A DNA stretch of 63,883 nt, taken from Clostridia bacterium. GTDB taxonomy: Bacteria; Bacillota; Clostridia; Oscillospirales; CAG-272. The stretch is from NCBI GenBank assembly GCA_017522795.1, contig JAFWXZ010000032.1, positions 1 through 63,883 of the forward strand, read 5' to 3'. This document shows positions 33,894-41,130 of this stretch, piece after piece. The position numbers were made by a program, and so were the translations under genes. How positions within the stretch are numbered: position 1 is the stretch's first letter; each line of letters opens with the position of its first letter. The notes below the pieces were generated by a model, which was not told where the DNA came from, made no database searches, and saw only the letters and a list, made by a program, of their open reading frames with translations.

Positions 33894-34229
33894 TTATTTA
33901 ACTTTAACTTCTATCCCTACCACACCATACTTTGCAATCTTTTCCACACTGTAATAAACAAGCATATCATTCGGATTCGCAATTTCCTCGTCTGAATAAC
34001 CAATCGATACTTTGTCATGATGCTTGTATAGTTCATCAAAACTACCATACTTAAACAAATTGGTAACTTCGCAATCTAATATTTCATCAGTGCTTGTATT
34101 GGTAAACTCAATACTATCCCCAATAGAAATAATTGAACGCTTTTCATCACACAATCTCATCTCAATCGTTTTGGTTTTATTTTTAACTTTTAGAAAAGAT
34201 TCATTCCAAAGATTCATTTTATGTATCAT
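33894..34229 (-). CDS. ASCH/PUA-like domain protein
   Basis: HKMNL..F..VKNKTKTIEMRLCDEKRSIISIGDSIEF..YGVVGIEV. Confidence 0.85.
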   Translation of the reverse strand: MIHKMNLWNESFLKVKNKTKTIEMRLCDEKRSIISIGDSIEFTNTSTDEILDCEVTNLFKYGSFDELYKHHDKVSIGYSDEEIANPNDMLVYYSVEKIAKYGVVGIEVKVK

Positions 34230-34280
34230 ATTAATACCCCGTCAAATTCAAGTTTATCGATTAGACACCTAACTAAGATA

Positions 34281-34342
34281 ATTATATTATAAAAATTCCC
34301 AAAAGTAAATAGGGCGGCTTGGTTTTTTACCTAAACCGCCCT
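34281..34342 (-). promoter_or_regulatory. Terminator hairpin fused to sigmaA promoter for the ASCH gene
   Basis: agggcggttt..ccgccct hairpin then TTTACT-17-TATAAT. Confidence 0.6.
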
Positions 34343-36652: not shown

Positions 36653-36831
36653 ATTGCCTCTTTCTCGCCCGTTTTTAGTCAGAACGCGCGATTTGTCAAA
36701 TAAAATACTCGTATGTTTTTTTACATCCTTTATATTATACAACGAAACTTTGTTTTTTGCAACAGGTTATAGGATTTTTATTCATTTAATTATAAAAATA
36801 AAAAAGCGGAACGAGTCCGCTTTTAGTTATC

Positions 36832-37332
36832 TTACAAATCCACAGAGGAATTGTTGTCCGAAAAGGATATGTGCGCTAGTGACAGCGCTCCTCGATAGAA
36901 GGTGACCGATGCCTTGACACCGTCGGGAAGTCTAAGCTCTATAACTCGCTCGTGGAAAAGTCTGTCAGCTTCATCGCCATTCAGATAAACGATACAACGA
37001 AGCATACCTCGATAGACGGTTATGTAATTCCCGTTTACCTCCGCGGTAGCAAATCTTGAAAAAGCAAGATCCAAAAGCAAAATAACGGGAGTCATCACAG
37101 CGCACCAAACGCCGATCACCACTCCAAAAACATAATCATTGTTATATGTGACGGTCTCGTAGGTAAAGATTCCGCTGCCGTGTACTGTCACCTCACGGCT
37201 CGCCTCTCTGAGAGAATGAAAAACGATAGCGATAGTCGCAAACACGACGATCAGGGCAGCCATAATTACTCTGCGGATTATTAAATTTTTTCTGAGGTTT
37301 TTCTCGAGTGCCTCAACCTTTTCTCTGTTCAT
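36832..37332 (-). CDS. Hypothetical membrane protein (distal cassette 5)
   Basis: 2 TMs; own promoter TTTACT-17-TATAAT at 37359-37387; terminator near 36800-36825. Confidence 0.7.
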   Translation of the reverse strand: MNREKVEALEKNLRKNLIIRRVIMAALIVVFATIAIVFHSLREASREVTVHGSGIFTYETVTYNNDYVFGVVIGVWCAVMTPVILLLDLAFSRFATAEVNGNYITVYRGMLRCIVYLNGDEADRLFHERVIELRLPDGVKASVTFYRGALSLAHISFSDNNSSVDL

Positions 37333-37428
37333 AACGGTTCCTTTGAAGTTTTTTATATATTATAACACGGCAAAAATAAAAAGTAAATATAGTTATAAAA
37401 ATTTACATAATTATAAAAGGATTATAAA

Positions 37429-37460
37429 AGGACGACTCGGATTTCTGAGCCGCCCTGTTT
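37429..37460 (-). repeat. Hairpin copy 4 of the cotJC-array element (no cotJC remnant)
   Basis: aaaacagggcggctcag-aaat-ccgagtcgtcct. Confidence 0.7.
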
Positions 37461-37473
37461 TATGATGTTTGGC

Positions 37474-37824
37474 TCAACTATACTTACTATGTAACACCTT
37501 TATAACATTAATTAAAGTATTATATACTTGATCACTGCTACTCAAAGGATAGGTCATTCTATCATGATTACAGGAATCATACGAAATGACAAATTTATCG
37601 GGATAAATCTCTACGTCAACGCGATACGCCTGATATTTACCATGTACTCTTATGTATTTGTCGTTATCAGAACAATTAGTACGGATAGATATGACTCTTA
37701 TTTTTTCACTTTTAAATTCGCTTTTTAATTTGCCGCTTAAATAATCGAGTAGTAAATAGTCAAAAGCATTTTTATTTTTGTCTACTTTTCTCAAATACGA
37801 TCTAATTTTGCTTTTTTCAAACAT
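37474..37824 (-). CDS. Hypothetical protein (cassette 4)
   Basis: AT-rich ORF with RBS AAGGAAG and own promoter. Confidence 0.7.
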   Translation of the reverse strand: MFEKSKIRSYLRKVDKNKNAFDYLLLDYLSGKLKSEFKSEKIRVISIRTNCSDNDKYIRVHGKYQAYRVDVEIYPDKFVISYDSCNHDRMTYPLSSSDQVYNTLINVIKVLHSKYS

Positions 37825-37855
37825 ATGAACTCTTCCTTAAATAATTGGTAAATTG

Positions 37856-37982
37856 ATTATATCATAGCGAAATGCAAAAGTCAAGGACGGCTCGATTTCT
37901 CGGGCCGCCCTGTTTTTATTTAGTTAGAATTTCTTGTCACGCAGGATGTTAATTGTTTCGTGAGTACAGTCAAACTGAAGTA
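37856..37982 (-). repeat. cotJC-3'-end repeat copy 3 (junction motif + HETINILRDKKF* + hairpin + promoter)
   Basis: tacttcagtttgactgta..ATCCTGCGTGACAAGAAATTCTAA..agggcggcccga-gaaa-tcgagccgtcct; TTGACT-17-TATAAT. Confidence 0.85.
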
Positions 37983-37988
37983 TTGCTA

Positions 37989-38393
37989 TCATCTGGCTTT
38001 CTTAAAAAGTGTTTTCTTTAGATAAGCTCGGATGCGTTTCCAATATATTATAACAAGTATTGAACCTATTTCTAATATGATTGCAATTATCAAAAGTAAA
38101 AATCCTATTGTATTTATGAAGAACATATGATAGGCTAGTATGAGAGAAATTCCCTGCACTCCTACCCACTCCATAAGTATACCGCCTGCTGAGAAATCAT
38201 TTAAATTAACATCTCTCATTATCTTATTTACACCTAATAATGCCATCGGAATAGACGCAATACTAGCAAATATGATTATGTTAATATCCTTAGATTCTAT
38301 ATACAAGAAAATGAATGCAATCCAACCATTGATTAACAAAAAAATCCATCCTAAAATTTTAAGAAGCAAGTTCGTGGTTAATCTTGTTTTCAT
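37989..38393 (-). CDS. Hypothetical 4-TM membrane protein (cassette 3)
   Basis: RBS GGAGGTG; hydrophobic; AT-rich. Confidence 0.75.
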   Translation of the reverse strand: MKTRLTTNLLLKILGWIFLLINGWIAFIFLYIESKDINIIIFASIASIPMALLGVNKIMRDVNLNDFSAGGILMEWVGVQGISLILAYHMFFINTIGFLLLIIAIILEIGSILVIIYWKRIRAYLKKTLFKKAR

Positions 38394-38418
38394 TTGTGAA
38401 CACCTCCCATTTTTCTAT

Positions 38419-38599
38419 ATTATACCACACCCCACATAAAAAAGCAAGGACGATTTGATCTCTCAAACCGCCCTGTTTTTTTCCTCATCCGTCATACTCG
38501 CAATGCTCGTATGCCTCCTTCCCCAACAGGGAAGGCTTATTTAGAATTTCTTGTCACTTAGGATATTCATAGCTTCGCCAATACAGTCAACATGAGGTG
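38419..38599 (-). repeat. cotJC-3'-end repeat copy 2 (GEAMNILSDKKF*) with inserted REP-like element
   Basis: cacctcatgttgactgta-tt-GGCGAAGCTATGAATATCCTAAGTGACAAGAAATTCTAA; REP at 38483-38538; TTGCTT-17-TATAAT. Confidence 0.85.
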
Positions 38600-38604
38600 T
38601 TTTA

Positions 38605-39105
38605 TCATTTCTTCACATTTACGTAAGTGATCTCTACACTACTACATCCAAAATGGTTTATCATTAATTTATACAGCTTCCCCTCTCTTGTCATTGGTTT
38701 AGGTTTTTTTCTAATTTTACCTATTATCCATTCTATAAAACTAAAAAGCTTAATCAAACAAAAAAGCGGAAAGAAAATAATTGTAAACAGTACTTCTATT
38801 ACTTTATCTCTCACCTTGGCTTTCGAATCTCTAGTATCTTCCGGACCAATATATTGAATCGTTCCAACGAGCTCTATTCTGTCATCGAACTCCCAAATAT
38901 CAGGAATAAACCAATATCCCCCACTATGTCCCGCACGTTCAATACCAAATCCTATTTTGTTATCAATAGTGCTTATTATATAGTTTTCAATTTGAAAATC
39001 CCCTTTAGGATTAATACTTATCCTTTTGTCAGGAGAACCGTAACGGCAGTGATTTATAAACATTTCTTTTGTTCCATTGTAACAAAATCTGTATTCTTTA
39101 TCCAT
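38605..39105 (-). CDS. Hypothetical protein with one TM (cassette 2)
   Basis: RBS AAGGAG; AT-rich ORF. Confidence 0.75.
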   Translation of the reverse strand: MDKEYRFCYNGTKEMFINHCRYGSPDKRISINPKGDFQIENYIISTIDNKIGFGIERAGHSGGYWFIPDIWEFDDRIELVGTIQYIGPEDTRDSKAKVRDKVIEVLFTIIFFPLFCLIKLFSFIEWIIGKIRKKPKPMTREGKLYKLMINHFGCSSVEITYVNVKK

Positions 39106-39130
39106 ATACTTTCTCCTTGTTTTTTCTTAT

Positions 39131-39259
39131 ATTATACCACACCAAAGCGAAAAAGTAAATAGGACGATTTGATTTCTCAAACCGCCCTGTTTTTATTTAG
39201 TTAGAATTTCTTGTCTCGCAAGATGTTCATTGCTTCGCCGATACAGTCAATATGAAGTA
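39131..39259 (-). repeat. cotJC-3'-end repeat copy 1 (GEAMNILRDKKF*)
   Basis: tacttcatattgactgta-tc-GGCGAAGCAATGAACATCTTGCGAGACAAGAAATTCTAA..agggcggtttga-gaaa-tcaaatcgtcct; TTTACT-17-TATAAT. Confidence 0.9.
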
Positions 39260-39276
39260 ATGTTGTTCGCTAAAAA

Positions 39277-39705
39277 TCATTTATACCTTTTATCAAATCT
39301 ATAAATTCTATATGAGTTTTGCTGTAGCCTTAAATAGATTCCTAATACAAGTTTTATTAATCCAAACAAAACCAACAAAATAGTGACTGCCTTGATTGAA
39401 AAAACGTTAGTTATTACTAAAATAGCATATTGAATAGGGAGAGTAATCAAAAATACAAGGTATAAATTATAAAAGAATTTATACTCCTTGGGATATACAG
39501 TATGTTCATTTATGTAATCAAAAGTGAATCGATCAAAAAATGACTTCGAACTATGTATCTTTTTAGCACTTTTCCTATTTCTTTTTGACAATAAGAAGCT
39601 AAAAAGCAGACCACGAAAATCCACGAATATGATTATATCTAAAAGAACTAAAAGTATATATAAAACGAGGATTATTTCATTCATTGATAAATTGCTCCTT
39701 TCCAT
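39277..39705 (-). CDS. Hypothetical 3-TM membrane protein (cassette 1)
   Basis: AT-rich hydrophobic ORF; promoter at 39720-39748. Confidence 0.75.
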   Translation of the reverse strand: MERSNLSMNEIILVLYILLVLLDIIIFVDFRGLLFSFLLSKRNRKSAKKIHSSKSFFDRFTFDYINEHTVYPKEYKFFYNLYLVFLITLPIQYAILVITNVFSIKAVTILLVLFGLIKLVLGIYLRLQQNSYRIYRFDKRYK

Positions 39706-39719
39706 TCATTTTCAATTAT

Positions 39720-39780
39720 ATTATACCACACCATAACGAAAAAGTAAAGAGCGATTTGATTTCTCAAACCGCCCTGTTTT
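39720..39780 (-). terminator. cotJC terminator hairpin whose T-tract doubles as the -35 of the next promoter
   Basis: agggcggtttga-gaaa-tcaaatcgctct; TTTACT-17-TATAAT. Confidence 0.75.
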
Positions 39781-39787
39781 TATTTAG

Positions 39788-40345
39788 TTAGAAATTCTTA
39801 TCTCTCAGGATGTTCATCGCTTCTCCGAAGCGCTGGAAGTGGACGATCTCGCGCTGGCGGAGAAATTTGATGGCGTCGTTGACGTCGGGATCATCGGAGA
39901 GGCGGAGAATGTTATCGTACATTGCTCTTGCCTTCTGCTCTGCCGCAAGGTCCTCGTGGATCGAGGCGAGGGCGTCCTCCTTAGAGGCTATAGATGCCGC
40001 ATTAAAGGGCATTCCCGATGCGGATGCGGGGAATATGCCTGCGCCGTGGTCGACGTAATACTTATCAAATCCGCCTGCGATAATCTCGTCGGGAGTGAGA
40101 TTTCGTGTAAGCTGATAAACAATGCTGGCTACCATCTCCTGATGGCCCATTTCTTCTGTTCCGACATCGGTCAGGATGCCCACTACTTTTCCGTCGGGCA
40201 TAGTGTAGCGCTGGTTAAGATAGCGCATTGCCGCGCCCGTTTCACCGTCGGGACCGCCGAGTGCAGTAATTATAATGCTCGCAAGACGAGGATTAGGACG
40301 CTCGATCTTTACGGGATGCTGAAGCTGCTTCTGATATATCCACAT
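39788..40345 (-). CDS. cotJC: Manganese catalase-family spore coat protein CotJC
   Basis: MWIYQKQLQHPVKI, LGGPDGE, RYLNQR, DVGTEEMGH, EDLAAEQKAR, REIVHFQRFGEA. Confidence 0.95.
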   Translation of the reverse strand: MWIYQKQLQHPVKIERPNPRLASIIITALGGPDGETGAAMRYLNQRYTMPDGKVVGILTDVGTEEMGHQEMVASIVYQLTRNLTPDEIIAGGFDKYYVDHGAGIFPASASGMPFNAASIASKEDALASIHEDLAAEQKARAMYDNILRLSDDPDVNDAIKFLRQREIVHFQRFGEAMNILRDKNF

Positions 40346-40346
40346 A

Positions 40347-40799
40347 CTATCTGTCCCCCTCTCTCATAAAGTCGCCTGCCTGCTGCCAGGGCCAGGGGCC
40401 GTCTACCCAATGCCACTGATCGGTGCTGACGTTGCCCATAGCGGTCAGAGGTCCTACGGTGTTCTCGTACTCCTCGGTGAGCCTTTTCAGCTCCTCGACG
40501 GTCTGATAATAGTAATCAAGCGCCGTGCGGCATCTGGGGTGGGTATCAAGATAAAGCTCAAGCTCTACCTTTACGAAGCAGAGCGCACGGATCTGCTCGG
40601 CAAGACTGCCCGAAAGAGCCGCGCCGTTTGCATTTCTGCCACCTCTGCCGTTTCCATTCGGGGCGGTATAGCCGCCGTTCATATTGGTGCCGTTATAGTT
40701 GGTACCGTTCATGTCGGTGCGACCGCCTGTGCCGTTGTTTGTAACACCGCCAACGCGACCGTTCATATTGTTCATACCATTATTTCTCGCTCTATTCAC
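40347..40799 (-). CDS. cotJB: Spore coat protein CotJB with Gly/Asn-rich N-terminal extension
   Basis: F..VELELYLDTHP..ALDYY..YE..VGPL..WHWVDGPWPWQ; GTG start overlaps cotJA stop. Confidence 0.88.
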   Translation of the reverse strand: MNRARNNGMNNMNGRVGGVTNNGTGGRTDMNGTNYNGTNMNGGYTAPNGNGRGGRNANGAALSGSLAEQIRALCFVKVELELYLDTHPRCRTALDYYYQTVEELKRLTEEYENTVGPLTAMGNVSTDQWHWVDGPWPWQQAGDFMREGDR

Positions 40800-41130
40800 G
40801 ACCGTACACCTCCATAGGCTTATACAGCTCCTCAAAGAGCGTGCCGTGCCTTAACGCATCGTTTGCCGAATAGAGCATACGAAAGACCTGGTCGGGAGCG
40901 TAGACGTAGGCGAGAGGCATTCTGTCAAGGCAGGTTCCTGTGCCGCCGCAGGCGTGGTTTCCCTGAACACCGCCGACAGTGCCGTTATTGCCACCGCAGC
41001 CGCCCATACCGTTGTTTCCTCCGCAACCGTTGCCACAGCCGTTTCCGCAACCGCCGTCGCCCGTGTTGCCGCCCATATCGGTCACGCCGCCAACAGAGCC
41101 GTTCGGATATCCGTTTTCATTTTTATCCAT
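40792..41130 (-). CDS. cotJA: Spore coat protein CotJA with Gly/Cys/Asn-rich N-terminal extension
   Basis: PLAYVYAPDQ..Y...ALRHGTLFEELYKP. Confidence 0.88.
   Translation of the reverse strand: MDKNENGYPNGSVGGVTDMGGNTGDGGCGNGCGNGCGGNNGMGGCGGNNGTVGGVQGNHACGGTGTCLDRMPLAYVYAPDQVFRMLYSANDALRHGTLFEELYKPMEVYGRE

Follow-up and report, generated by a model that had tools for sequence, protein, structure and literature searches.

An apparently mobile array of single-gene cassettes at the 3' end of the spore coat gene cotJC in Clostridia, with large serine recombinases as the probable enzymes of its movement

The DNA considered here is a stretch of 63,883 nucleotides, referred to below as the window, from a bacterium of the class Clostridia (Oscillospirales, CAG-272; GenBank assembly GCA_017522795.1, contig JAFWXZ010000032.1, positions 1 to 63,883). 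The genome concerned (G000) is a metagenome-assembled genome (MAG) with a completeness of 78%. Behind cotJC, a gene encoding a spore coat protein of the manganese catalase type, the window contains five small genes, and a displaced copy of the cotJC 3' end lies behind each of the first three. This locus is very probably one case of a variable, horizontally exchanged mobile array of single-gene cassettes that occurs genus-wide and has accreted at one point within the last 13 codons of cotJC. The most likely enzymes to service the array are large serine recombinases (LSRs) of a family specific for the cotJC tail, as judged from LSR elements found at the same position in relatives. The best explanation of the whole, to which a probability of about 0.58 can be assigned, is that cassettes are moved by these LSRs at an attB site formed by the end of cotJC and are then reshuffled by homologous recombination.

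The cotJ genes lie on the minus strand (cotJA, 40792-41130; cotJB, about 40347-40790; cotJC, 39788-40345), with Pfam matches to CotJA and CotJB in the two upstream neighbours and to Mn_catalase (3.7e-51) in the product of cotJC, which is intact and 185 residues long. They are followed on the same strand by five small open reading frames (ORFs), at 39277-39684 (or 39705), 38605-39105, 37989-38393, 37474-37824 and 36832-37332. An original prediction, made from the sequence alone, had described these as unrelated ORFs in tandem, the proximal four of them AT-rich. Both points hold: the ORFs share no similarity with each other, and their GC content is 0.26-0.35 in ORF1 to ORF4, as against 0.50-0.58 in cotJABC (0.42-0.47 in ORF5). 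The displaced tails that it reported behind the first three ORFs were also recovered. The last 12 codons of cotJC and the stop codon (39788-39826; native tail GEAMNILRDKNF) recur behind ORF1, ORF2 and ORF3 as GEAMNILRDKKF, GEAMNILSDKKF and HETINILRDKKF, each closed by a stop codon (39201, 38541 and 37924, at spacings of 587, 660 and 617). The native tail and the first copy differ in six codons, and five of these changes are synonymous (GGA/GGC, GCG/GCA, CTG/TTG, AGA/CGA and GAT/GAC), the remaining one replacing N with K, in line with the predicted preponderance of synonymous change.

As the prediction had it, the native end and all three tail copies are followed by the same module, in which a terminator hairpin is joined to a promoter whose -10 box is TG-extended. 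At the native end, the hairpin (39748-39775) overlaps the -35 box of the promoter (39720-39748), and the module so formed (39720-39775) heads cassette 1. The modules behind the three copies head cassette 2 (terminator 39161-39188 and promoter 39131-39159, together 39131-39188), cassette 3 (terminator 38447-38474, module 38410-38474) and cassette 4 (promoter 37856-37884, module 37856-37912). A fifth module, behind ORF4 (terminator 37429-37456 and promoter 37359-37387, together 37359-37456), heads ORF5 and has neither a tail copy nor the boundary motif P described below. The promoter ahead of ORF3 is visible in the alignment only, whereas the three other cassette promoters and the one at the native end were scored by the scan. 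The hairpin carries a T-run and pairs on the coding strand by way of G-U pairs, and its pairing is retained by compensated changes in the third copy, ahead of cassette 4, and behind ORF4. About 56 extra bases separate the stop codon of the second copy from its hairpin and form a hairpin-rich insert (38481-38536, of the CCTTCCC...GGGAAGG...GGATGAGG type) similar to inserts in relatives. Across the whole 1.65-Mb genome, the module was matched with E values of 1.6e-39 to 9.7e-13 at this locus only, the other matches (E values of 1.3e-4 or weaker) covering just the promoter part, and the repetition of tails and modules is therefore more than chance.

Each displaced tail is introduced by a motif of 18-20 nucleotides, ACTTCAnnTTGACTGTAT, termed P here, which the original prediction had overlooked and which is common to copies 1 to 3, stands just upstream of the tail copy and is absent from native cotJC. 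It is followed directly by a core, GGCGAAGCnATG. Motif, core and displaced tail make up three sites, at 39201-39260 (P at 39241-39258), 38541-38600 (P at 38581-38598) and 37924-37983 (P at 37964-37981), the third of which has the degenerate core TCACGAAAC. The native core, GGAGAAGCGATG (39815-39826), encodes G-E-A-M and contains the putative crossover dinucleotide GA at 39822-39823; its position is homologous to the junctions of an LSR element (G123), a pseudo-site (L065) and a cassette insertion (L053/L066), all described below. Among 56 distinct cassette ends, at least 1 bit of information is found at every position from -26 to +7 around the central GA except four. The left edge of this conserved block is sharp and lies directly behind unrelated stop codons, and conservation is patchy beyond +7, as expected of decaying codons. 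A cassette is made up of a terminator hairpin, a TG-extended promoter of constitutive type, one AT-rich ORF, the 26-nucleotide form of motif P (AATACTTCAYNYTGACTGTAT + TGGC) and the core GA-AGCnATG. In the loci examined, cassettes have P at this side only and no inverted P on their left; their sites are, thus, of the attR type, and the window contains an intact site of the attB type at the native end of cotJC.

Some variation was noted within these boundaries. A site variant reading ...GACTGTAC-YCA-CGAA... stands at the distal end of three arrays (window, 37964-37983; L056, 7273; L052, 3736), in two of them just upstream of a cassette of the ORF4 type, and may be an old junction shared by descent. 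Many cassettes have, between tail and terminator, a mini-array of three to four short hairpins with fixed spacers of 8-9 nucleotides (window 38481-38536, L033, L055, L057, L060, L061 and L063). The spacers are of AACTTCAC, CAATTCATnA and GGATGAAATC types, and units of the form CCTTCCCC...GGGGAAGG...GGATGAGG also occur. The C-terminus of CotJC itself exists in a short form, ending 10-13 residues after FGEA, in array-bearing and some other close relatives, whereas relatives that lack the motif have a long form, which reads ...LR..Q(D/E).L(D/N)SKNF... and continues further; cassette-borne tails look like shortened tails of the long form.

An occupied and an empty version of the same site were found in two relatives. 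In G183 (L066), cotJC is followed by the core, a tail (tail B), a terminator-promoter module and a cassette (cassette B). In G065 (L053), the order is cotJC, core, a different tail allele (tail A), a hairpin insert, a terminator-promoter module, cassette A (with an ORF of 203 residues), P and core, and only then tail B, its terminator-promoter module and cassette B. The two loci differ by one unit of about 820 nucleotides, inserted exactly at the core and adjoining cotJC, and tail B differs at a single base between them; an incoming unit thus gives cotJC a new end and pushes the old tail distally. The serial insertion at one site proposed in the original prediction is borne out by this pair. 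Its further proposal that the newest cassette lies next to cotJC is supported as well, but by this one pair and the position of the LSR elements. From the core onwards, a block of about 1.3 kb (L053, 4553-5865; L066, 3895-5200) shows an identity of about 99.7% in the two genomes and ends inside the convergent flanking core gene, whereas the flanks are 80% identical on the cotJC side and about 78% identical on the far side. A near-identical block between diverged flanks indicates a recent exchange between the two species. Cassettes were also found away from cotJC. In G053 and G170 (G053:C27 and G170:C62; L062 and L065), a two-cassette array lies behind an unrelated gene of 188 codons, with its junctions at GA (...GCC-GA-AGC... 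and ...TGGC-GA-CTC...). At a further such locus (L061, G188:C55), the cassettes are accompanied by a partial duplication of a tail-like stretch.

Inspection of the ORFs of the window revealed no recombinase beside the array, as predicted, and the candidate enzyme comes from relatives. In G096 (L055), a gene for a 519-residue LSR (Resolvase PF00239, 2.1e-37; Recombinase PF07508, 1.1e-10; Zn_ribbon_recom PF13408, 3.7e-10) has a variant of P and the core immediately behind its stop codon, and next come a cotJC tail, a terminator-promoter module and cassettes. The same order, from LSR gene and P through to module and cassette, was observed for two more genes, one in G123 (L087, 99% identical) and one on metagenome contig L138 (74% identical), such that the LSR gene abuts P in all three cases in which the 3' flank could be read. 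The elements lie at the cassette codon of cotJC, heading the arrays. The element of G123, which could be read whole, is 8.15 kb long; at its left junction, which truncates CotJC about nine residues early, cotJC runs to the core and then into the reverse complement of P. The attP site is, thus, an inverted repeat of P around a GA-centred spacer: as reconstructed from the G123 junctions, it consists of P, a 10-nucleotide spacer and inverted P, is symmetric at 15 of 19 positions and has GA at its centre. In our own comparison of the sequences, the P motif of the cassettes matches both arms of the LSR attP at 14-16 of 18-19 positions. Inverted P was not found elsewhere in the loci examined. The terminator begins somewhat like inverted P (common CAGGG), but this likeness was considered too weak to be claimed and needs a gap of one nucleotide. 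A recombinase co-occurring with the junction motif, which the original prediction led us to expect, was found beside arrays in relatives but not, in the form of a cognate LSR, in this genome.

Elements interrupting cotJC are not confined to the array site. The gene is split in many relatives, at three places (L046, G007:C21; L057, G108:C30; L087, G123:C48; and in G003, G015, G024, G008, G031 and G025). Near residues 57-66, the split is due in G123 to a 6.6-kb element with a 586-residue LSR, and the pieces of the gene lie on two contigs in G003, G015 and G024. Near residues 133-137, cotJC is split in G007 by about 16.6 kb with a 519-residue LSR, and also in G108. The third place, at about residue 177, is that of the elements of G096 and G123, the latter genome having two elements in one cotJC. 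The LSRs of the three positions are only 23-31% identical to each other. The LSR genes of G000 itself lie on contigs C17 (two), C21 and C22, all within about 2.5 kb of contig starts.

The junction motif and the arrays it marks are spread over the genus. Among 213 genus genomes, of which 74 are of high quality, the 18-nucleotide motif with up to one mismatch was found at 62 places in 36 genomes, the reversed motif, used as a control, matching twice. cotJC itself was present in 34 of the 41 genomes searched (G000 and 40 relatives), with displaced tails behind it also in G023, G003 and G007. Twenty P loci were fetched. cotJC lies directly upstream in 12 of them, as it does in the window and in L033; the other eight comprise two at a contig end, one with an LSR element between cotJC and the array, four at other genomic sites and one chance match. 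The arrays hold one to five cassettes, with P-to-P spacings of 494-2656 nucleotides (median 742, n=30). A comparison of relatives for variable content at a fixed junction and a scan for the junction motif, both proposed with the original prediction, therefore gave the expected picture of one motif marking arrays of differing gene content. An identical gene set and order in relatives, named in the prediction as speaking against it, was not observed: only the ORF2 and ORF4 families of the window recur in the fetched loci, and the order is never the same. Outside the genus set, an exact 19-nucleotide pattern of P and core was matched in 42 stretches from bacteria and archaea (one genome per species). 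About two thirds of these are Clostridia or Eubacteriales MAGs with titles naming goat, yak, roe deer or sheep gut, and the remaining matches are single, come from unrelated phyla and are about as many as expected by chance according to our own estimate. The pattern was not matched in viral contigs; core plus inverted P was matched there twice, both times inside a dehydratase-like coding region, and these matches are considered due to chance. Among short Logan contigs, the stretch or part of it was recovered from 20 sequencing runs of nine studies. Loose ends at 39816-39825 in these contigs proved to belong to other species, in which cotJC has the long form of the tail.

The cargo is diverse and consists, by prediction, of small membrane or soluble proteins. 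Only 18 homologous pairs were found among 50 ORFs preceding a P motif, and the same families stand at different array positions in different genomes. In the window, cassette 1 (39277-39684, GC about 0.27) encodes a predicted membrane protein of 135 residues from an ATG behind a ribosome-binding site (142 residues from 39705), and cassette 3 (37989-38393) another, of 134 residues, with no relative in the fetched loci. The 166-residue product of cassette 2 (38605-39105) belongs to a family also present in the G107 and G023 arrays and at locus L099, and that of cassette 4 (37474-37824), of 116 residues, to one also present in the G107 and G096 arrays. The distal ORF5 (36832-37332, 166 residues) has its own terminator (36802-36824) and may be either a former cassette from which the site has disappeared or a gene resident at the locus. 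None of the five products has a Pfam, PADLOC or NCBIfam family over the cut-off; 40 homologue clusters were retrieved for ORF2, all unnamed, and a search of the ESM Atlas with ORF4 gave unnamed clusters only, with scores of at most 0.82. Of 47 cassette proteins of relatives, 20 were scanned, and eight had a Pfam family over the cut-off, the families found being DMP19-like (twice), DUF4240, Abi_alpha, Nmad3, SF0329, DUF2310 and DUF2691. Some of these families occur in immunity or defence contexts, and the array can be read as a bank of accessory genes, probably for immunity or defence. Beyond the array, a lone module of the same terminator-promoter kind, without P, heads an AT-rich ORF of 111 codons (33894-34341, minus strand), from which the array is separated by an operon of two genes. 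When searched with a strict pattern, the module has four matches in G000, all in the window, two more array modules escaping it.

In the mechanism proposed, the end of cotJC would be the attB site of an LSR family, and autonomous elements of about 8 kb would insert at the same GA dinucleotide as the cassettes. The cassettes might be moved in trans, small cassette circles recombining with the cotJC attB by means of an LSR supplied elsewhere, or in cis, an LSR element excising with a more distal attR, taking cassettes to a new host and later leaving them there. Each insertion would provide cotJC with a fresh tail, terminator and promoter and push the old tail distally, such that the newest cassette adjoins cotJC and cotJC stays intact. 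After insertion, homologous exchange or deletion between near-identical terminator-promoter modules would reshuffle the cassettes and unlink the tails, and cargo genes would be expressed from their own promoters, independently of the sporulation-specific cotJ operon. A more far-reaching version can be offered only tentatively. The array would then be an LSR-based analogue of an integron, in which single-gene circles with a hybrid site (attP half-site, core and target tail) enter and leave the cotJC attB, the enzyme being supplied in trans by a sporulation-gene intervening element, and would constitute a strain-specific immunity or defence bank in gut Clostridia. As the product sites would be of the same types as the substrates, the reaction would be freely reversible and the growth of the array unlimited. 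To our knowledge, integrons have not been reported in gut Clostridia.

Several observations weigh against movement of the cassettes by LSRs. Motif P is present in only 4 of the 74 high-quality genomes and a cognate LSR (more than 70% identity) in only 2 of the 213 genus genomes; the four LSR genes of G000, in its 78%-complete state, are only 22-28% identical to the cotJC-targeting ones. The canonical reaction of LSRs is between attP and attB, and a directionality factor is required for attL to recombine with attR; we know of no established case in which an LSR recombined attB with a site of the attR type. Neither a circle nor an excision junction was detected among the contigs of four of the runs, but these contigs are short and fragmentary, with joints (sides of 20-54 letters) inside repeated modules and gaps over ORF1 to ORF3 in some runs, and they carry no weight either way as regards circles or strain variation. 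In 11 of 12 homologous cassette pairs, the upstream core lies outside the stretch of raised identity, which begins only at the terminator and ends just after the downstream core (nucleotide alignments for two pairs), so tails are usually unlinked from both neighbours and an added step of homologous recombination is needed. This pattern, the end of the 1.3-kb block of G065 and G183 inside a flanking core gene, the rarity of the LSR and the frequent occurrence of a single tail type throughout an array would all suit homologous recombination alone, with P and core as the fossil attR of a single ancient LSR insertion, growth by unequal crossing-over, exchange between strains and species by way of conserved flanks (cotJC and terminator-promoter module to the left, P and core or downstream genes to the right) and no site-specific step today. 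Such a history nevertheless seems unlikely, given that it leaves unexplained how more than 30 unrelated ORFs came to be placed precisely between the same promoter module and P, that the conserved 26-nucleotide block is non-coding and has a sharp edge at 56 ends, and that arrays at sites without flanking homology have their junctions at GA. Recent unequal crossing-over should also leave near-identical adjacent tails, and only 2 of the 25 measured pairs are at least 0.90 identical. On the same count, a target-site-duplication model, suggested by L068 and by the native tail and first copy of L033, was rejected as a general rule.

Another awkward case is L068 (G096:C4), a single cassette at the 3' end of a 381-codon gene, at a site that is empty in G000. 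The last 36 nucleotides of the host gene are exactly duplicated on the two sides of this cassette, which is impossible by a single crossover and needs either a two-step history (for example, excision by way of an alternative left site and re-insertion) or another mechanism. As an exact duplication of this kind is not a signature of serine recombinases, it could point to a different enzyme, be it a HUH-type single-strand transposase, a tyrosine recombinase or some other integrase, for which the terminator hairpin would be the left end and the imperfect palindrome of P the right end, the LSR elements merely sharing the target. The left boundary of the common blocks does lie exactly at the start of the hairpin, the compensated changes preserve its pairing, and terminator-promoter-ORF units without P exist (those of ORF5 and of 33894-34341, and one in L052), which likewise counts against LSR-borne cassettes. 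A hairpin with a T-run can, however, equally be read as a plain terminator, and no gene for such an enzyme adjoins any array examined. The only two tyrosine recombinases of G000 (PF00589) are on contigs C5 and C17 and none is on the window contig (C36), and the likeness of P to both LSR attP arms, with an LSR gene abutting P in three of three cases, makes a different enzyme less likely still than homologous recombination alone. By far the least probable is a locus that is not mobile at all, arising by local tandem duplication with divergence of the paralogues or by mis-assembly of repeats, both of which the original prediction had listed as speaking against it. The genome is an incomplete MAG, and the contigs of G001, G005 and G006 break right behind cotJC; but the ORFs do not resemble each other, the same architecture with different genes recurs on long contigs in dozens of independent assemblies, and eight sequencing runs from four studies hold at least half of the sampled words of the stretch. 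Insertion of cassettes by cotJC-specific LSRs, followed by homologous reshuffling, is, thus, retained as the preferred reading.

The array is closer to composite islands of the staphylococcal cassette chromosome (SCC) and to the accretion of cis-mobilizable elements (CIMEs) than to integrons, but it departs from each in defining features. The SCC attachment site is the 3' end of rlmH, a gene that stays functional. With SCC and pseudo-SCC elements, the array shares LSRs, a conserved gene with a functional 3' end, tandem accretion with site repeats and riders without a recombinase. It differs from them in its units, each of which is one gene (0.5-2.7 kb) headed by the standard terminator-promoter module rather than an island of 3-60 kb, in its target, cotJC instead of rlmH, and in the retention of just one attP half-site; moreover, the LSR scores 113, 86 and 84 bits with the CcrB, CcrA and CcrC models, for which the cut-offs are 900, 700 and 900. 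Composite SCC islands contain elements in tandem, including members without ccr (bioRxiv 10.1101/336396). The CIMEs of streptococci are non-autonomous units with att sites as their boundaries; they accumulate at the 3' end of a target gene, where the arrival of an autonomous element can mobilize them in cis. They keep both attL and attR and derive from decayed integrative and conjugative or mobilizable elements with tyrosine integrases (PMC5704250), whereas the units of the window are minimal and uniform and have attR-type sites only. Integrons resemble the array in the serial capture of single genes at one site, with the newest in proximal position, in their variable and mostly unknown cargo and in the possible absence of an adjacent integrase. 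The original prediction of an integron-like gene-capture locus is apt as regards this logic but not as regards the machinery, as no IntI lies beside the array (the tyrosine recombinases of G000 being on other contigs), the boundary is a 26-nucleotide half-site plus core and not a folded attC, each cassette has its own promoter and terminator, whereas integron cassettes mostly lack promoters, and the array is built onto the end of a coding gene.

Two further systems invite comparison. The skin, SPbeta and gin elements are LSR elements located in sporulation genes expressed in the mother cell, with the recombinase at one end (PMC5595907, PMC4191935, PMC5499854). G096 and G123 have 8-kb elements that answer to this description, and cotJC is also interrupted in G007 and G108; by contrast, the window cassettes restore cotJC rather than interrupt it, and cargo arrays behind the site find no mention in the abstracts of those papers. 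In Bacteroidales, recombinase-associated acquired interbacterial defence (rAID-1) arrays of gut bacteria consist of small low-GC orphan immunity genes with repetitive intergenic sequences and are headed by a XerD-family tyrosine recombinase (bioRxiv 10.1101/471110). They belong to a different phylum, and the immunity role of the cassettes described here is only presumed. As for LSR integrative elements in general, recombinase domains and an inverted-repeat attP are found in the elements of relatives and not in the window cassettes taken as units. No description of cotJC cassette arrays or of LSR-based cassette arrays was found in the literature searched, the scope of which excluded subscription journals and supplements.

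If single cassettes cycle through circles, the arrays would represent a new class of system. Should an LSR indeed move them, they would be a second solution, mechanistically unrelated to the first, to the problem that integrons solve, the cheap serial capture and expression of genes, and one operating in anaerobic spore-forming gut bacteria. A serine integrase would then serve minimal units containing half of its attP, which would bear on the site choice and directionality of LSRs and on genome engineering. cotJC is a repeated landing site, with LSR elements at three positions of the gene in relatives, and the arrays behind it provide a defined catalogue, addressable by sequence, in which screens for immunity and defence could draw on more than 30 families of small accessory proteins, most of them without a known function.

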